Positions 1,644 through 16,043 of a stretch of 16,106 bases of DNA are shown here, piece after piece; positions within the stretch are counted from its first letter, which is position 1, and each line of letters starts with the position of its first letter. The position numbers and the translations under genes were made by a program. The stretch comes from a virus (lineage: Duplodnaviria; Heunggongvirae; Uroviricota; Caudoviricetes). The stretch lies in IMG/VR virus record IMGVR_UViG_2648501299_000001, positions 1 through 16,106 of that record. One strand, 5' to 3'. Under the pieces are notes generated by a model. The model did not search any database, had not been told where the DNA came from, and worked only from the letters and a program-made list of their open reading frames with translations.

Positions 1644-1667
1644 ATAAAAAAGGAGCCTGTAGCTCCC
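1644..1667 (-). terminator. Intrinsic terminator inside the early-left operon
   Basis: On the minus strand: GGAGC-tacag-GCTCC hairpin followed by TTTTTTT (plus strand 1644-1667 reads aaaaaaaGGAGCctgtaGCTCC). Lies just downstream of the stop of the 1689..2000 gene. Confidence 0.5.
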
Positions 1668-1688
1668 TGATGATTTTGCTTTTCATGT

Positions 1689-3791: not shown

Positions 3792-4088
3792 TTATACCTC
3801 TGAATCAATATCAACCTGGTGGTGAGCAATGGTTTCAACCATGTACCGGATGTGTTCTGCCATGCGCTCCTGAAACTCAACATCGTCATCAAACGCACGG
3901 GTAATGGCTTTTTTGCTGGCCCCGTGGCGTTGCAAATGATCGATGCATAGCGATTCAAACAGGTGCTGGGGCAGGCCTTTTTCCATGTCGTCTGCCAGTT
4001 CTGCCTCTTTCTCTTCACGGGCGATCTGCTGGTAGTGACGCGCCCAGCTCTGAGCCTCAAGACGATCCTGAATGTAATAAGCGTTCAT
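3792..4088 (-). CDS. gam: RecBCD inhibitor Gam (98 aa, GamS-length form)
   Basis: [60 protein letters not shown]...[10 protein letters not shown] matches the C-terminal 98 aa of lambda Gam. ATG at 4088 with an AGGAG RBS 7 nt upstream. The reading frame is not open further upstream, so the long form is absent. Confidence 0.9.
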
Positions 4089-4163
4089 GGCTGAACTCCT
4101 GAAAATGGCTGTGAAAATATCGCCCGCGAAATGCCAGGCTGATTAGGAAAACAGGAAAGGGGG

Positions 4164-4370
4164 TTAGTGATTCAGGCCGTTGCCGCGTCCGTCGAGAAAA
4201 ACTTCCACGAGCAAGTCACGGGTATAAGTGCGCTCGATGCCGCGATGCAGATAAAGCCGTCCGCGTAAATTAGCTGATGCAGTCCAGGTACCATCTTTGT
4301 GTTTGACCAGCATTCCTGGCATGACCGCACCGCGATTAACAGTCTGCGTTCCGTAATGTTGATGAACCAT
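4164..4370 (-). CDS. Small hypothetical protein at the kil/cIII position (68 aa; start uncertain)
   Basis: ATG at 4370 preceded by a strong RBS (GGGCAGGAG, 5 nt spacer). The frame stays open upstream to in-frame ATG 4454 and TTG 4574 (ORF-track 136 aa version), whose N-terminus is arginine-rich. Function not recognised. Confidence 0.45.
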
Positions 4371-4639
4371 AAAAACTCCTGCCCGTAAGCTGGGCTGCTG
4401 AACATATAAAGACTTCTGCGCGTATTCAGGCGGTGGATGGCCGCCGGTTGTCATAACTAAGCCGCCTCGTTGAAGCGACTGAGGTATGAAGTGTTGAGTT
4501 GATTTCAGCTGGTCACACCGACGTTCACGCGTCCGCTTCACCCCTCGCACTCCCCGGAGCCTGCTGAAATTCAAGCTGCGGATCTAAGCGGTCATCGCAA
4601 CGGTGAATCAGGTGATTGCCGTATCGTTGTGTTGTTGCG

Positions 4640-4700
4640 ATATGGTGATAATAGCTATTGCTATTGATGATATCAATACTTATTGCTATTGCTAGATGTG
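4640..4700 (-). promoter_or_regulatory. Candidate leftward early promoter (pL-like) with operator-like repeats (OL)
   Basis: On the minus strand: TTGATA (plus 4671-4676), 17 nt spacer, TATTAT (plus 4648-4653). Copies of the TTGCTATTG motif at 4658-4666 and 4683-4691 overlap and flank the promoter; the same motif recurs next to cI/cro (6764-6772, 6789-6797). Confidence 0.45.
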
Positions 4701-4813
4701 TTTTGATATTAAATGTTTGATAGCAAAAAGAATTAATTTTGTGACTTGCATCGCATAGCGATAACTGAAGTGAGGTGTGGTGGTTTTTTGGACGGTATGA
4801 GTTATGAGGGGGA

Positions 4814-4850
4814 GGAAAAGAAAACCCGGCGCGGTTGCCGGGGGCTTTTT
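4814..4850. terminator. Bidirectional intrinsic terminator closing the cI-cassette transcript
   Basis: CCCGGC-gcggtt-GCCGGG hairpin (4825-4842) flanked by an A/T run on each side: GGCTTTTT on the plus strand, TTTTCTTTTCC on the minus strand. Sits 25-60 nt downstream of the stop (4875) of the minus-strand 305 aa gene. Confidence 0.65.
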
Positions 4851-4874: not shown

Positions 4875-5792
4875 TCAGCCTACTGTTCTAAAGATGAGAA
4901 GTGGTGTCATCCCATACGAATCACTTCCTCTACCAGCTTGTACCTTGACCATATCCAGGAAGGATTGTAATCCTGACTTGAGATCGTGTTCAGGGAAATC
5001 AAGAGGGTTATTGATATTCTGATCTTGTACAGAATCTGGCAAGGCATCAATCAATCCAATGACATGCCAGGTACCCGGTATGGTGCCACCATATTTTAAG
5101 GCTAAGTCATCAGGATTAATTGTTAAATATTCTTTATCAATAGACATCCACATCAGGTTGCCATTCTCATCAATAAAATCAACCTGGAGGATGTTGGGAA
5201 CGATATTAATGAGTTTCTTAACTACACCAATGGTAAGCCCAGGAGATATCTCAATTTCATCTGGGGTGAGTTTCCCTTTAAGCTTCGCTTTGGCTTTTGG
5301 GGGAAGGTTGACCGTGTTTAATTGTGCTTGGGCTATCTCACCAAAAATAGGCATAATTTTCTGAATAGTTGACACATCAAAAATGCGCATTTTTCCAACA
5401 GAATGAACAACTGAACCAAGATTCTCACCATTAAGTCCAGTTTTAATCATTCCTGCTTCATCTAATTTATCGAGAAAATTAATTGGTAATGACCATGAAG
5501 CGTCGAAAGTTTTCTCTTGCGAATGTGTTAAGGCGTCGTCAGTCCCCACTTTTCCTTTAAGAATCTTGACGCTTAATTCAACGGATTTATTAGATTTATC
5601 TGTGTCAGAAGTAGTTTGTTTTACGCTCGTCACTACACCAGCATTGTGAAGCTGGGCTGTGAGGGAGCTAACGCGTACACGGTCTATGTAAAGAAAATCA
5701 AATAGTGAATCTGTGCTTTGTTGTTCGAGCTCCATTTTGCCAATCCTCTCTAAATTTTTCTTTTTCCTCGCGAATTCTTTTTTGCTTTTCAT
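4875..5792 (-). CDS. Hypothetical protein in AT-rich insert downstream of cI (rexA/rexB-equivalent position); 305 aa, or 286 aa from ATG 5735
   Basis: Long ORF with visibly lower GC than the flanking phage genes. The ATG at 5735 has a GAGAGG RBS about 9 nt upstream; the ATG at 5792 has a weaker context. Same strand as cI and followed by the terminator at 4814-4850. No motif recognised. Confidence 0.6.
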   Translation of the reverse strand: MKSKKEFARKKKNLERIGKMELEQQSTDSLFDFLYIDRVRVSSLTAQLHNAGVVTSVKQTTSDTDKSNKSVELSVKILKGKVGTDDALTHSQEKTFDASWSLPINFLDKLDEAGMIKTGLNGENLGSVVHSVGKMRIFDVSTIQKIMPIFGEIAQAQLNTVNLPPKAKAKLKGKLTPDEIEISPGLTIGVVKKLINIVPNILQVDFIDENGNLMWMSIDKEYLTINPDDLALKYGGTIPGTWHVIGLIDALPDSVQDQNINNPLDFPEHDLKSGLQSFLDMVKVQAGRGSDSYGMTPLLIFRTVG

Positions 5793-5877
5793 CTATCTCA
5801 TCGAAAAGTTGAATGAGTTCATCCACACCATGTGAAGGCGTCTCTGATTTCACTTTCTTCAAAATTTTCTTGAACAT
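5698..5877 (-). CDS. Possible small charged protein (59 aa) between cI and the 305 aa gene
   Basis: ATG at 5877 (MFKKILKKVKSETPSHGVDELIQLFDEIDEKQKRIREEKEKFREDW...). No clear RBS, and it overlaps the 5' end of the 305/286 aa ORF in another frame. Could be real or an AT-rich artefact. Confidence 0.25.
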   Translation of the reverse strand: MFKKILKKVKSETPSHGVDELIQLFDEIDEKQKRIREEKEKFREDWQNGARTTKHRFTI

Positions 5878-6026
5878 GATGATTTTCCATAGAGAACTGA
5901 CTGTACAAATTATGTTCTCTTTGTCACATGAAAGCAACTGTACCAGGACAAGCAAAGTGTGTCTCCAAAGATCGCTTTAATCACATGTTACAGCTTTTTT
6001 GTCAGCTTTGGTCCCATGAAGACGCT

Positions 6027-6719
6027 TTACCCATGCTTCCTGTATGTCTGCGGCATGCTCCCAATAACCTTACCGAAGATGAACACCCGGTTCATCTCGT
6101 CTTTCTCGATCGGGTCCCACGGCGAGTAGCTCTTGTTATCAGAGATAACCAGCAGCTTATCCTTCATCATTTGAAGACGTTTTACATGGGCAGTGTCGTC
6201 GTACAGAAACGCATAGATGCCATCACCGTCGAAAGATTTAACAGTGATATCAACGAACAGCAGGTCACCTGGTTCGATCGTTCCTGACATGCTGTCACCA
6301 CGCACGTTAATGATGCGGATATTTTCCGCCTTCCTGCCATCGAACATGTGACGAGCATCGTCAAACGAGTATTCAACCGAGCGTAGAACTTCTACAAACT
6401 CACGGTTGATTACACCCGGCCCGGCACTGACTTCCATATCAAGAACGTCAATTTTGAAGTATTTGGAATGGCTGACAGCAGGCTTCCCTGATTGTTGACC
6501 GTCATTTCTCATCGGGCCTATGCCTGATGAGAGCCATTCTGTTCGAACACCCAATGCATTAGCTATTTCAACAATTTTTGTTGAGCCGCGCGCGTTGCCG
6601 CTTGTCAGTCTCCAGATTGTGGGTTGAGCTACGCCAGACGCCTTTGCAAGAGCGCCTTGAGACATTCCAGATTGTTCCATCGCTAGGTTTAAGCGATCAG
6701 CAAGAGTTTCTTTTTTCAT
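6027..6719 (-). CDS. cI: cI-like prophage repressor (HTH-XRE N-terminal domain plus LexA/S24-type autopeptidase domain)
   Basis: N-terminal HTH (LADRLNLAMEQSGMSQGALAKASGVAQPTIWRL), an Ala-Gly candidate cleavage site (SAGPG), and S24 catalytic motifs GDSM (Ser) and VKRL (Lys). First ATG at 6719 has no SD, consistent with a leaderless or short-leader pRM-type transcript; the ORF-track start at 6755 is TTG. Divergent from the cro-like gene. Confidence 0.85.
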   Translation of the reverse strand: MKKETLADRLNLAMEQSGMSQGALAKASGVAQPTIWRLTSGNARGSTKIVEIANALGVRTEWLSSGIGPMRNDGQQSGKPAVSHSKYFKIDVLDMEVSAGPGVINREFVEVLRSVEYSFDDARHMFDGRKAENIRIINVRGDSMSGTIEPGDLLFVDITVKSFDGDGIYAFLYDDTAHVKRLQMMKDKLLVISDNKSYSPWDPIEKDEMNRVFIFGKVIGSMPQTYRKHG

Positions 6720-6755
6720 AAGTTTTAATTTATACGCTTGCGTATTGATGGTCAA

Positions 6756-6829
6756 AACACGTTTTGCTATTGCTTGGATTAATACGCATTGCTATTATTC
6801 ATTCATTGCAATACCAATAGGAATTGATA
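6756..6829. promoter_or_regulatory. Divergent cI/cro control region (OR-like operators, candidate pR and pRM)
   Basis: Plus strand: TTGCTT (6770-6775), 17 nt spacer, TATTAT (6793-6798) as a candidate pR. Minus strand: TTGACC then about 16 nt then ATAAAT just upstream of the cI ATG as a candidate pRM. TTGCTATTG/TTGCTATTA motifs at 6764-6772 and 6789-6797 overlap the -35 and -10. Confidence 0.5.
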
Positions 6830-7713: not shown

Positions 7714-8643
7714 ATGGCAAACACTGCTGAGATATTCAATTTTCCTGTGCCGGATGCGGCACAAAAGGAGCCGCGCGTGGCAGATCTCGATGATGGTTAT
7801 ACGCGCATTGCAAATGAGTTGCTGGAAGCTGTAATGCTGGCCGGATTAACACAGCACCAGCTTCTGGTCTTCCTGGCTGTCATGCGCAAAACATATGGCT
7901 TTAATAAAAAACTGGATTGGGTGAGCAACGAGCAACTTTCCGAGTTGACCGGGATATTGCCGCACAAGTGTTCTGCTGCAAAAAGTGTTCTGGTAAAGCG
8001 TGGGATTTTTATTCAGAGCGGGCGGAATATCGGCATCAATAATGTGGTCAGTGAATGGTCAACATTACCCGAATCAGGTAAGAAAAATAAAGTTTACCTG
8101 AAAGAGGTAAATTTACCTGAATCAGGTAAGAAAAGTTTACCCAAATCAGGTAAAGGCGTTTACCCGAATCAGGTAAACACAAAAGACAAACTAACAAAAG
8201 ACAATATAAAACCTTTTTCGTCCGAGAATTCTGGCGAATCCTCTGACCAACCAGAAAACGATCTTCCTGTGGTGAAACCAGATGCTGCAATTCAGAGCGG
8301 CAGCAAGTGGGGGACAGCAGAAGACCTGACCGCCGCAGAGTGGATGTTTGACATGGTGAAGACCATCGCGCCATCAGCCAGAAAACCGAATTTTGCAGGG
8401 TGGGCTAACGATATCCGCCTGATGCGTGAACGTGACGGACGTAACCACCGCGACATGTGCGTGCTGTTCCGCTGGGCATGCCAGGACAACTTCTGGTCCG
8501 GTAACGTGCTAAGTCCGGCCAAACTCCGCGACAAGTGGACCCAGCTCGAAATCAACCGTAACAAGCAACAGGCAGGCGTGACAGCCAGCAAACCAAAACT
8601 CGACCTGACAAACACAGACTGGATTTACGGGGTTGATCTATGA
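7714..8643 (+). CDS. O: Replication initiator O (lambda O family), containing ori iterons
   Basis: ATG at 7714 with GGAGG 5 nt upstream; the ORF-track start 7624 overlaps the CII-like gene. The N-terminal domain resembles lambda O (VADLDDGYTRIANELLEA ... RKTYGFNK). The gene carries iterons encoding LPESGKK repeats, then an AT-rich segment. ATGA overlap with P. Confidence 0.85.
   Translation: MANTAEIFNFPVPDAAQKEPRVADLDDGYTRIANELLEAVMLAGLTQHQLLVFLAVMRKTYGFNKKLDWVSNEQLSELTGILPHKCSAAKSVLVKRGIFIQSGRNIGINNVVSEWSTLPESGKKNKVYLKEVNLPESGKKSLPKSGKGVYPNQVNTKDKLTKDNIKPFSSENSGESSDQPENDLPVVKPDAAIQSGSKWGTAEDLTAAEWMFDMVKTIAPSARKPNFAGWANDIRLMRERDGRNHRDMCVLFRWACQDNFWSGNVLSPAKLRDKWTQLEINRNKQQAGVTASKPKLDLTNTDWIYGVDL
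8065..8213. repeat. Replication origin: four 18 bp iterons plus one degenerate copy, followed by an A/T-rich tract
   Basis: TTACCCGAATCAGGTAAG (8065-8082), TTACCTGAATCAGGTAAG (8113-8130), TTACCCAAATCAGGTAAA (8137-8154), TTACCCGAATCAGGTAAA (8160-8177), with a degenerate copy near 8094-8110. Each is an inverted repeat TTACC...GGTAA. Followed by acacaaaagacaaactaacaaaagacaatataaaacc (8178-8213). Confidence 0.85.
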
Positions 8644-9723: not shown

Positions 9724-10536
9724 ATGATTTTTATTAGTCATAATTATAAAGACAAAGCTTTCGTTGGGTATATTGCAGATAAAATTGCAGATATATATGG
9801 CAGGGATAACGTATTTTATGATTCGTGGTCAATTCAGCCTGGTGAAGGGATTATTGAACGAATGAATGATGGAATCGAATCCGTTAAAATTTTCTTTTTC
9901 TTTGTTACAAAAAATAGCCTTAAGAGTGATATGGTGTCTTTAGAATGGCAGAATGCACTTATGAAAGCCGCCACTGGAGATGTTAAATTCATTGCTATAC
10001 GTTGTGATGAATCACCTATGCCTGCACTTCTTACTCAAAAAGTGTATTTGGACCTTTATACAAATGGTATAGATGTAGTGATAGCACAAATGAATGATAT
10101 TATCTCTGGTAAAAGCACTTATAAACCTCAGGATGAATTATTCTCCAATCTTTCATATGACTTTAAAACAGAATCCAATAAAGTAATAGTTAGGGTTTCC
10201 GCTGATCATTTTAGCGAGGTTACCGCTGACTTTTTGTTCTTATTTACTAATAAATTAAAGGATAATGAATTAAGATATAATGTATTAGGTGAAAGTGGTT
10301 TTATCCAAGGTTTCCGTTCAGACTATAAACTAAGCACGGGTGAAGTGTTTAGCGCACAAATGGTTGCATTAATGCATGGTCTTAAACCAAAAATTCATTT
10401 GACTGTGGAGTTTTGGCTTGATTCAGGAGATGAACTTATTCTCGCACATGTTATGAGTAAAACATCAACAGATCAGTACACGACCATACCATACAAGAAA
10501 AAAACAGATTTTAGCGGCTTTAACATGAAATTCTAA
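9724..10536 (+). CDS. TIR-domain protein (N-terminal TIR-like domain, uncharacterised C-terminal domain); AT-rich insert
   Basis: N-terminus MIFISHNYKDKAFVGYIADKIADIYGRDNVFYDSWSIQPGEGIIERMNDGIESVKIFFFFVTKNSLKSDMVSLEWQNAL follows the TIR pattern: FIS(H/Y)xxxD box, W.D..I.PG, hydrophobic strand then S..S, and a conserved Glu in SLEW. The C-terminal ~150 aa are not recognised. Markedly AT-rich codon usage. Flanked by non-coding DNA on both sides. Confidence 0.6.
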   Translation: MIFISHNYKDKAFVGYIADKIADIYGRDNVFYDSWSIQPGEGIIERMNDGIESVKIFFFFVTKNSLKSDMVSLEWQNALMKAATGDVKFIAIRCDESPMPALLTQKVYLDLYTNGIDVVIAQMNDIISGKSTYKPQDELFSNLSYDFKTESNKVIVRVSADHFSEVTADFLFLFTNKLKDNELRYNVLGESGFIQGFRSDYKLSTGEVFSAQMVALMHGLKPKIHLTVEFWLDSGDELILAHVMSKTSTDQYTTIPYKKKTDFSGFNMKF

Positions 10537-11988: not shown

Positions 11989-12125
11989 TGTTTGAGTCTT
12001 ATATGGCAGAACGTCTTCGCCGCCGCTGGGTGCGCCTGCGCTTATATCGTTTTCCCGGTTCTGTTTTGACCGATTACCGAATACTGAAGAATTACGCCAA
12101 AACACTGAAAGGAGCTGCCGCATGA
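11988..12125 (+). CDS. ylcG: YlcG-like small protein (45 aa; absent from the ORF track)
   Basis: Hand translation: [45 protein letters not shown]. Start overlaps the rusA stop (TGATG); its stop overlaps the next gene start. Resembles DLP12 YlcG as I recall it. Confidence 0.6.
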   Translation: MFESYMAERLRRRWVRLRLYRFPGSVLTDYRILKNYAKTLKGAAA

Positions 12126-12811
12126 ATATCCAATATTTACAGTATGTTCGCGAGCAACTCATGGTGGCTACCGCTGATTTGAGCGGAGTAACGAAAGGCC
12201 AGCTTGAAGCCTGGCTGGAGCATGCTCAATTTGATACTGGTACATACAAACGAAAGAAGCCGCGCATTCTGGATGAGGTAACTGGCAGGATGATTACGCT
12301 GGATAATCCGCCGATTTCCGGTAAGCAGTCGTACGCAAAAGGTTCATCCATTGCACTGGTCAGCCAGGTTGAGTTCTCAACATCTTCATGGCGCCGCGCG
12401 GTTCTGTCTCTCGAAGAACACCAGAAAGCGTGGTTGCTGTGGAGTTACAGCGAAAGTGTTCGCTGGGAGCATCAGGTTGCCATAACGCAGTGGGCATGGA
12501 ACGAGTTTAAGGCTCTGTTAGGTACAAGAAAAATTGCCAGTAAGACACTGGAACGCTTAAAGAAGTTGATCTGGCTGGCGGCACAGGATGTGAAGAACGA
12601 GCTGGCAGGGCGTAAGACCTATGAATACCAGGAGCTGGCATCACTGGTGGGAGTGACATCAAAAAACTGGTCTGAGACATTTACTGAACGCTGGGTTGCA
12701 ATGAAGCACATTTTTCTACAGCTTGATAGCCAAGCTTTATTGCTTTTAACGAAAACACGTTCAAAACAAAAGGCGACATTTTCACAGCAAAGTATTGCAA
12801 AACTGGATTAA
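12122..12811 (+). CDS. Putative late-gene antiterminator (Q-position protein), 229 aa
   Basis: Occupies the Q position between rusA/ylcG and the late promoter/lysis cassette. The sequence is not lambda Q and has no Cys zinc finger. The call is by synteny only. Confidence 0.4.
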   Translation: MNIQYLQYVREQLMVATADLSGVTKGQLEAWLEHAQFDTGTYKRKKPRILDEVTGRMITLDNPPISGKQSYAKGSSIALVSQVEFSTSSWRRAVLSLEEHQKAWLLWSYSESVRWEHQVAITQWAWNEFKALLGTRKIASKTLERLKKLIWLAAQDVKNELAGRKTYEYQELASLVGVTSKNWSETFTERWVAMKHIFLQLDSQALLLLTKTRSKQKATFSQQSIAKLD

Positions 12812-12841
12812 AAAGCATATATTTCGTGTAAATCTGATATT

Positions 12842-12870
12842 TTGCCAATGTTGTACGCACTGGCAGTAAT
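12842..12870 (+). promoter_or_regulatory. Candidate late promoter (pR'-like)
   Basis: TTGCCA (12842-12847), 17 nt spacer, AGTAAT (12865-12870), in the 308 bp non-coding gap after the Q-position gene. The match is weak. Confidence 0.3.
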
Positions 12871-12991
12871 CCAAATTCAAGCCCGAGGTTTAAAACTTTG
12901 GGCTTTTCTGTTTCTGGACGGTGAGTAGCCTTCCAACCTACCCCAGCCAGGGTGTTTCAGCTGTTGAGTTGATATTGCTTAACCCTCTGTT

Positions 12992-13016
12992 GCCAGCTAC
13001 ATGCTGGCTTTTTTAT
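12992..13016 (+). terminator. Intrinsic terminator (tR'-like) upstream of the lysis cassette
   Basis: GCCAGC-tacat-GCTGGC hairpin followed by CTTTTTTATT. Confidence 0.6.
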
Positions 13017-15651: not shown

Positions 15652-16002
15652 ATGCCGCCACGAATCCCAAAAGCCTGCCGTGTTCGCGGTTGCCGCCATA
15701 CCACCACAGCTCCTTCCGGCTATTGCGAAAGCCACAAAAACGAAGGCTGGAAGCAATACAAGCCAGGACAATCCCGTCATCAGCGCGGCTACGGTTCGAA
15801 ATGGGATGCTATCCGTGAACGTGTGCTGCAACGTGACAAAGGCCTGTGTCAGTTATGTCTGCGTGCTGGTGTGGCGCGTGAAGCGAAAACCGTTGACCAC
15901 ATCATCCCTAAAGCACATGGCGGCACTGATGCCGACAGTAATCTGCAGAGTCTGTGCTGGCCGTGTCATAAGGCGAAGACGGCCCGTGAACGGCTAAAGT
16001 GA
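15652..16002 (+). CDS. HNH endonuclease (terminase-associated type)
   Basis: Cys/His pattern CRVRGC...C...H...CQLC...VDHIIPKAHGG.D...NLQSLCWPCHKAK, typical of the HNH nucleases found next to small-terminase genes and cos sites in HK97-like packaging modules. Confidence 0.85.
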   Translation: MPPRIPKACRVRGCRHTTTAPSGYCESHKNEGWKQYKPGQSRHQRGYGSKWDAIRERVLQRDKGLCQLCLRAGVAREAKTVDHIIPKAHGGTDADSNLQSLCWPCHKAKTARERLK

Positions 16003-16043
16003 TAATAATTCTCAACTGCCTAGTGATAATAATTCTCAACTGC
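15998..16043. repeat. Two perfect 22 bp direct repeats (AGTGATAATAATTCTCAACTGC) at the HNH 3' end
   Basis: Copies at 15998-16019 and 16022-16043, 2 bp apart. The first contains the HNH stop codon. Confidence 0.9.

Follow-up and report, generated by a model that had tools for sequence, protein, structure and literature searches.

The window analysed here is a 16,106-nucleotide stretch of the Caudoviricetes record IMGVR_UViG_2648501299_000001, and it is a lambdoid prophage. Between the predicted leftward early promoter (PL) and the gam gene, the minus strand carries an open reading frame (ORF) of 136 codons, whose arginine-rich upstream part had raised the prospect of a divergent N-like antitermination protein. 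Our comparisons of this region with its relatives make a different arrangement likely, in which nucleotides 4371-4641 form the untranslated PL leader of a lambdoid prophage without N, kil is the first gene, and the frame upstream of kil is open by accident.

In the proposed arrangement, a prophage of the Bievrevirus, 4A7 and Perceval type would make a repressor-controlled PL transcript whose leader of 270 nucleotides is composed of two modules, namely a segment of ~150 nucleotides restricted to this group of Escherichia coli prophages and a widely shared cassette of ~120 nucleotides. The open frame would be an accident of a G-rich leader that happens to be free of stop codons in the window copy. 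The delayed-early genes (leftward kil-gam-bet-exo and rightward cro to Q) would be transcribed without N, since no strong intrinsic terminator is predicted to precede them in pattern scans, and the late genes would be served by the Q antiterminator. The coordinates of the features are collected in Table 1.

The open frame and the start of kil

As described in the first-pass annotation, the frame at 4164..4574 (minus strand) is open from TTG 4574, with the ATG codons at 4454-4452 and 4370-4368 in frame and a ribosome-binding site (RBS) serving the latter. This site is the Shine-Dalgarno sequence AGGAG (4380-4376), located 5 nucleotides before ATG 4370. The protein that would start there matches PHROG 294 (E 1.3e-37) and the NCBIfam FtsZ inhibitor family NF008465 (E 1.8e-17), the latter alignment beginning at residue 1 and covering profile positions 1-70 of 73, with a score of 63 bits, short of the 92 bits set by curation for the Rac subfamily. 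Six homologues, including Rac KilR (34% identical), have their N-terminus at the position of ATG 4370, their alignment with the window protein has 14 invariant columns, and in phage HK225 an in-frame TAA is found 5 codons upstream of the kil ATG. By sequence, the short form belongs to the KilR family, and a role in division inhibition would follow from its homology to Rac KilR, for which this function has been described (PMC12482147, PMC5793797).

From these alignments we conclude that the predicted start of Kil is ATG 4370, and that the early-left operon would truly open with kil. A kil gene of 207 nucleotides and 68 codons is also what is annotated by PGAP, in RefSeq E. coli genomes and in phage 4A7 (locus L001, 6065-6271). 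The outlier is phage Perceval (locus L002, 6065-6484), where a 139-amino-acid ‘Kil’ takes in the leader. Longer ‘Kil’ forms of this sort are probably over-extended, and the 68-amino-acid form should be used in annotation. In other records the leader is named ‘membrane carboxypeptidase’ or ‘hypothetical protein’.

Searches of the long and short forms against N and Nun families returned only matches to the Kil family. For the 136-amino-acid form, Pfam yielded 0 families, PHROGs yielded only phrog_294 (residues 60-136), and NCBIfam yielded only the FtsZ inhibitor (residues 69-136), with nothing for the 57-amino-acid extension. A phmmer search of PDB, which would include the solved N and Nun peptides, produced one chance match (E=3) that is not N.

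Related copies of the region were gathered by three exact-pattern scans of IMG/VR, together with phage and E. coli records. Read from GTG 4541, the frame reaches the kil stop codon in 57 of 117 copies and ends at a TAG after 20 codons in 46, and the remaining 14 carry other stops or frameshifts that give products of 29, 39, 67, 68 or 122 amino acids. Among 45 unique close variants, 13 have the in-frame TAG (C4481T), 3 have a 5-nucleotide duplication near 4503 and 2 differ otherwise in the spacer; the arginine-rich part is uncoupled from kil in 18 of the 45. A comparison of substitutions in all three frames finds no coding bias in the extension (synonymous to nonsynonymous changes 4:6 in the proposed frame versus 4:5 and 2:8 in the other two), unlike in kil (61:87 in its own frame versus 31:111 and 31:109).

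The extension (RLRGVRGVKRTRERRCDQLK) does have the arginine-rich composition for which it had been likened to the RNA-binding region of N. The arginine codons are explained by the G-richness of 4570-4525 (12-18 G per 30 nucleotides, including the palindromic GC block GACGCGTGAACGTC), and the frame is not conserved. Because the frame is broken in relatives, bears no coding signature and is divided by the Kil family boundary at ATG 4370, the extension is very probably untranslated PL leader and not a protein or a conserved protein domain. Our sequence comparisons thus speak against the proposal of a divergent N-like antiterminator, fused to or overlapping Kil, in the long ORF, its frame being broken or shifted in 60 of the 117 copies and both a coding signature and an N or Nun match being absent.

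All of this evidence applies equally to a genuine N-Kil fusion protein translated from TTG 4574 or GTG 4541 through to 4164, which we consider hardly credible. Such a protein finds encouragement in the open frame of the window and of the 57 relatives just mentioned, and in the 139-amino-acid ‘Kil’ of the Perceval record, but its frame would have to cross two conserved RNA hairpins (described below) and to pass over the strong RBS at 4370.

The two modules of the predicted PL leader

The candidate leftward promoter noted in the first-pass annotation is strengthened by its surroundings. Operator repeats at 4662-4693 overlap PL and are also present at OR, in the interval separating cI from cro (6743-6799; repeat families D3 and D18), and the homology of phages with other immunity types starts exactly at ~4641 and continues downwards from there. 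Because the best promoter match, the operator repeats shared with OR and the mosaic boundary at ~4641 all coincide, the predicted PL and its operator OL, with a transcript start near 4641, are well supported. The surrounding sequence (4100-4843) is 96% identical to that of phages 4A7, Lambda_4C10 and Perceval of the genus Bievrevirus.

The cassette of ~120 nucleotides that occupies the downstream half of the leader (4371-4490, minus strand) is common to phi80, HK225, HK639, the Klebsiella phage KO-TP1 and Enterobacter phages. Over 120 IMG/VR contigs contain it, as do prophages from 17 GTDB species belonging to Enterobacter, Citrobacter, Scandinavium and Huaxiibacter, and it is shared by hundreds of Enterobacteriaceae prophages. 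Copies elsewhere include those of loci L004 (3001-3137), L005 (4001-4140) and L008 (4637-4780), and those of L009-L225. The order of its parts is a covarying hairpin (hairpin 1), an invariant GGCGGCCAUCCACCGCC hairpin (hairpin 2), the conserved GAAGUCUU, a small hairpin and an RBS, and the gene 3' of it varies, being kil or one of several others. A terminator hairpin with a T-run abuts hairpin 1 in 130-138 of 146 unique non-window copies; in phi80 this abutting terminator is annotated as tL1A, and the cassette lies within the deposited ‘tL1 regulatory signal’. Rfam does not contain the cassette and, with all families run on the whole window, matches nothing in the leader (4371-4645) at E<=1. 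Likewise, no paper on the cassette sequence was found in the searchable literature.

Hairpin 1 diverges widely in sequence between phages and its pairing is retained. The GAG(G) of its 3' arm is invariant, and at its foot CAUA pairs with UAUG, which buries the AUG at 4454. Across 33 distinct sequences, 97.4% of the cells are paired, as compared with 30-51% when the partner strand is slid, 7 pairs are changed on both sides, and the covariation score is reached by 0 of 500 shuffles. Maintenance of this predicted hairpin by compensatory changes is therefore strongly supported.

Hairpin 2 (GGCGG-CCAUCCA-CCGCC), by contrast with the diverging hairpin 1, is nearly invariant across genera. When copies were re-sampled with an anchor outside the core, the exact core was found in 106 of 129, and the variants keep the hairpin and shift the frame of a mini-ORF that crosses it. 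In the GenBank annotation of HK639, hairpin 2 is marked as a terminator; the window copy is without a T-run. A boxB or nut function was considered for this hairpin and rejected, there being one copy per phage and no boxA. Its resemblance to an RfaH ops site or a DnaA box is only partial. The small hairpin (GCCC...GGGC) varies in sequence among variants, and by eye a hairpin is present in each.

The mini-ORF in question is headed by ATG 4454, which is paired within hairpin 1 in the predicted fold, and it reads MTTGGHPPP. It has suffered deletions of 1-2 nucleotides in five loci (L158, L211, L168, L203 and L205) and has lost its ATG in a sixth (L163), with hairpin 2 retained. Because hairpin 2 stays in place through these changes, ATG 4454 does not appear to be a conserved start, and what is conserved would be the sequence and structure of the RNA, or possibly of the DNA. 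We also considered that MTTGGHPPP might be a leader peptide of the elongation factor P (EF-P) type, and rejected this idea since other phages frameshift the mini-ORF or lose its ATG yet keep the nucleotide motif. We infer that the cassette acts at the RNA level, by affecting the processing or stability of the transcript or by controlling translation of the early-left genes that follow it.

The upstream module (4491-4641) is a candidate cis-acting RNA with a narrower distribution. It is found in 2210 of 5426 complete E. coli genomes, lies under no annotated coding sequence among the 40 matches listed, and its copies are all at least 87% identical, mostly 95-100%. An nhmmer search of ~130 loci that include phi80, HK225 and HK639 recovered only near-identical E. 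coli copies, and none of the 17 cassette-bearing species from the genome-contig scan carries a module of the window type. RNAalifold found 0 compensatory pairs among 14 module variants, and z-scores of the minimum free energy (MFE) are ~0. All 3 substitutions seen (A>G, A>U and C>U) are compatible with a possible long-range helix between 4574-4560 and 4514-4501, and they are too few to support it.

A first estimate of nucleotide diversity (pi) in the leader, 0.027 as compared with 0.09 at third positions of kil, looked like constraint. A pairwise control nevertheless traced the low value to mosaic kil/gam alleles and gave no support for purifying selection on the module. In pairs with near-identical kil/gam, the module diverges by 0.023 as compared with 0.020 for neutral (synonymous and intergenic) sites and 0.006 for codon positions 1+2. 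A functional RNA role for the upstream module is thus unproven.

At 4-15 nucleotides from where the PL transcript is predicted to begin, the module carries CAACAACACAAC, in a region that is variable in relatives (L129 and L047). This sequence is complementary to the GcvB small RNA (sRNA) and might serve GcvB/Hfq as a target or sponge site, or it may simply be a CA-rich stretch resembling a rut site or an enhancer. An AgvB-like anti-sRNA was rejected as a model for the leader, given that AgvB is located downstream of PR' and not at PL (PMC4104026).

Proposed early transcription without N

The first-pass annotation reported neither an N gene nor a lambda-like nut site, and Pfam, PHROGs, NCBIfam, Rfam and a boxA scan all agree. 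The boxA-like pattern occurs 13 times in the window versus 12.8 expected, with none in either leader; no boxB was found, nor any repeated element common to the left and right leaders. We also built a covariance model from 8 put sequences, which scores HK022 putL at 97 bits, HK639 at 92.5 and putR at 56. With filters off, this model finds nothing in the window leader, its best window match being an 11-bit hit elsewhere. The put core pattern, tested with the consensus GAACGGC...CGUCGG...GGCGGG.UCAGGA.GA.CGGCAAU, is absent at up to 3 mismatches. By pattern and covariance model, put is absent also from 4A7, phi80, HK225, KO-TP1 and ENT1. At the level of sequence, a put of the HK022 type is excluded from the window, while the broader suggestion that this phage uses a mechanism other than N survives.

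It had also been argued that some antitermination is needed, given a terminator within the early-left operon. That terminator is real by pattern (1650-1668), and it is the first convincing intrinsic terminator of the left operon, but it lies downstream of kil-gam-bet-exo. A further early-left candidate was found by pattern scan at 2241-2263. The scans detect no strong intrinsic terminator between PL and exo or between PR and Q, and the strong terminators of the plus strand (12879-12905 and 12992-13008) both come after Q and its PR'-like promoter. Because strong intrinsic terminators are missing from both intervals, the need for antitermination, or for N, appears weakly founded.

Despite this, the upstream module occupies the slot in which relatives hold an antitermination device, an argument from position only. 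It begins at the predicted start of PL transcription and has terminators downstream. In phi80, nutL (boxA and core), N and tL1A fill the slot between PL and the cassette. Among 123 other loci with the cassette, 39 have a put upstream of it in the same orientation, at a distance of 55-1326 nucleotides, and put is found in 0 of 108 loci of the window type. In three loci a putL of the CobraSix type abuts the cassette with no gene or terminator between them (L018, 6156-6229; L154, 8489-8562; L192, 7868-7941), a layout that mirrors that of module and cassette in the window. The module might consequently be a new factor-independent antiterminator RNA that replaces nutL plus N, or putL. Such a nascent RNA would fold, stay on RNA polymerase and carry the enzyme past Rho-dependent and intrinsic terminators. 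Published evidence indicates that put RNAs work without proteins and depend on the zinc-binding domain of the RNA polymerase beta' subunit (PMC9378689).

The put-like proposal is further favoured by the G-richness of the module, a property shared with put, by its movement with the early-left genes across immunity types, and by the terminators further down the operon. Its MFE z-scores of ~0 are no counter-argument, since validated put RNAs are also unremarkable (-0.7 and -1.2). On the other side, neither the put model nor the core motif matches the leader, no covariation can be obtained and homologues outside E. coli are absent, close pairs diverge at the neutral rate, and the right operon has no second copy (although HK639 too has putL only). 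Moreover, kil-gam-bet-exo would require no read-through of an intrinsic terminator. On balance we regard a put-like role for the module as unlikely. The joint proposal, in which the module is a new put-like RNA class replacing nutL plus N or putL and the cassette is an undescribed structured RNA regulator of early-left genes, strikes us as similarly improbable.

Several observations do not sit comfortably with an untranslated leader that functions without antitermination. The variable micro-ORF that begins at GTG 4541 has a plausible Shine-Dalgarno sequence, GGAG, 8 nucleotides upstream of its GTG or ATG start. This start codon is retained in 116 of 117 copies (ATG in 18, lost in 1), and the first 17 codons barely vary, eight of them being covered by the anchor pattern used for sampling. 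Some translation of the leader may take place. The upstream module shows neither purifying selection, as judged by close-pair divergence, nor structure, as judged by RNAalifold and MFE. Lastly, the pattern scans see intrinsic terminators only, such that Rho-dependent sites are invisible to them, and silencing by Rho/NusG is established for Rac kilR (PMC5793797). Because of these two circumstances, the leader may need antitermination after all.

The micro-ORF continues in frame into kil in the window, and the 46 relatives in which C4481T creates a TAG would encode MKRTRERRCDQLKSTQHFIP. If a short arginine-rich peptide of at least 20 amino acids were translated from GTG/ATG 4541, then it could be either a minimal N-like protein or, more plausibly, the product of an upstream ORF (uORF) whose translation protects the leader against Rho or adjusts the expression of kil. 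Beyond the RBS and the well-kept start codon, C-rich, G-poor stretches resembling rut sites flank the G-rich block, and Rho/NusG silencing of Rac kilR would fit the uORF version. Its ‘RERR’ core also resembles residues 8-11 of lambda N, or residues 8-15 together with the small, acidic and polar residues that follow. However, the substitutions exhibit no coding bias, the C-terminus is variable (lengths of 20, 29, 39, 67, 68, 122 and 125 amino acids), and the peptide has no family or PDB match. The NusA- and RNA polymerase-binding regions of lambda N are too large to fit within 20 amino acids. A boxA, a boxB and another nut-like copy are likewise missing, and the arginine codons coincide with the palindromic GC block. 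We assign a translated peptide a very small chance overall; an N-like role for it is very unlikely, and as a uORF it might conceivably act in coupling or in protection from Rho. We therefore retain the untranslated leader as our working interpretation.

Genomic context and known systems

Table 1. Positions in the window of the leader, its parts and neighbouring features
Feature	Position	Strand	Basis or description
Predicted PL promoter	4676..4648	minus	TTGATA-17-TATTAT, 10/12 match, best within left 8 kb
PL and OL operator repeats	4648..4700	minus	promoter match, repeats and mosaic boundary
CAACAACACAAC	4626..4637	minus	perfect 12-nucleotide complement of GcvB R1 seed (GcvB nucleotides 72-83)
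PL-proximal leader module, ~150 nucleotides	4491..4641	minus	C-rich ends, G-rich centre 4570-4525; candidate cis-acting RNA
Variable micro-ORF	4479..4541	minus	GTG 4541; KRTRERRCDQLKSTQHFIPQ; GGAG 8 nucleotides upstream
Hairpin 1	4451..4489	minus	16 base pairs, two 1-nucleotide interruptions; fold and covariation
Hairpin 2	4429..4445	minus	GGCGG-CCAUCCA-CCGCC; sequence nearly invariant across genera
Rest of cassette	4371..4428	minus	variable spacer, conserved GAAGUCUU, small hairpin 4395-4381, Shine-Dalgarno AGGAG 4380-4376
kil, 68 amino acids, putative KilR-family FtsZ / cell-division inhibitor	4164..4370	minus	PHROG, NCBIfam, homologue alignment
gam	3792-4088	minus	Pfam Gam, E 3e-65
Intrinsic terminator	1650..1668	minus	8 pairs then TTTTATTATT; real by pattern
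Bidirectional intrinsic terminator	4825..4842	both	6-7 pairs, T-runs on both sides
85-amino-acid protein and 305-amino-acid DUF6414 protein (‘rex’ position)	4875-5955	minus	between cI and OL
cI	6027-6755	minus	S24 peptidase and helix-turn-helix
Q antiterminator	12122-12811	plus	PF06323, E 3e-94

After the leader, the minus strand carries kil, gam, bet and exo, in this order, and the genes of the plus strand are a YdaS-type cro, a YdaT-type ‘cII’, O, P, a gene for a TIR protein, a ninB-like gene, RusA, Q and lysis genes. The operon is of the lambdoid kind that lacks N and has RacR/YdaS/YdaT. The same N-less layout is shared by 4A7, Perceval and Lambda_4C10, which are deposited as phage genomes, and in the one E. 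coli genome example inspected the prophage adjoins icd.

Just upstream of OL and PL, the bidirectional terminator closes the operon of cI and the 85-amino-acid and DUF6414 genes. The latter two are located at the position of lambda rexAB; the 305-amino-acid DUF6414 protein corresponds to phrog_9699, and its 85-amino-acid neighbour is a putative membrane protein. The pair is probably prophage-expressed cargo or a defence candidate, with no PADLOC match for either protein. The content of the interval between cI and OL varies, with genes for an ASCH-domain and a hypothetical protein in 4A7 and for a transmembrane and a hypothetical protein in Perceval.

A 270-amino-acid TIR protein is encoded between ren and the nin region (9724-10536, plus strand). 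Its N-terminal TIR domain matches PF13676 (E 8.5e-20), and PADLOC gives a weak match to TIR-NLR; the gene is likely anti-phage defence cargo. Iteron-like repeats (TTACCYGAATCAGGTAA), present in 4-5 copies within the O gene (8065-8181, plus strand), presumably constitute the replication origin. Directly 3' of Q there is a PR'-like promoter, TTGCAA-17-TATATT, within a region (12795-13008, plus strand) expected to be the Q-antiterminated late leader. An isrJ-like RNA match in this region (12827-12906, plus strand; 28.5 bits, below the gathering score) ends in a 12-base-pair terminator. Near the right end of the window, two copies of a perfect 22-nucleotide direct repeat, AGTGATAATAATTCTCAACTGC, are spaced 24 nucleotides apart (15998-16043, plus strand).

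If our assessment is correct, then neither N nor nut nor an HK022-type put serves the early operons of a prophage family found in ~40% of complete E. coli genomes, and the tempting reading of a hidden N is removed. Two by-products of the analysis are of interest in their own right. One is the conserved RNA cassette, supported by covariation, that in many Enterobacteriaceae lambdoid phages directly follows a tL1-type terminator and precedes varied early-left genes. The other is the leader module found at the antitermination slot of relatives.

Among known systems, lambda N and nutL offer only a superficial parallel. As in lambda, an arginine-rich frame comes first after PL and its composition is superficially similar to that of an arginine-rich motif, but the window frame has no family match and is not conserved, boxA and boxB are lacking, and there is no counterpart of nutR. 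Rac kilR is comparable in several respects, as its product belongs to the same family (NF008465) and starts at the same position, the gene takes the same place in an N-less RacR/YdaS/YdaT early-left operon, and a long untranslated leader precedes it. The Rac leader yields the sRNA KilS (PMC8175672), which is annotated in E. coli K-12 Rac in the 5' untranslated region of kilR (locus L295, 4406-4503). The window leader has no nucleotide homology to the Rac kilR leader or to KilS, and Rac carries recET where the window prophage has a lambda-type gam-bet-exo. Even so, Rac provides a functional precedent for a long kil leader with a regulatory role.

The put RNAs of HK022 and HK639 resemble the upstream module in being G-rich and in belonging to phages without N, and in HK639, L018, L154 and L192 put takes the corresponding position, following PL directly and preceding the shared cassette. 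They differ in that neither a sequence nor a model match exists and no two-stem structure is supported in the window. In the N-tL1 region of phi80, a cassette of 120 nucleotides that is ~85-90% identical to that of the window comes immediately after tL1A, although it is preceded there by a 400-nucleotide leader with an annotated nutL (boxA and core) and by a 98-amino-acid N gene, which the window lacks. The closest described relatives of the noncoding part are the phi80 tL1 region, for the cassette, and put of HK022 and HK639, by position only.

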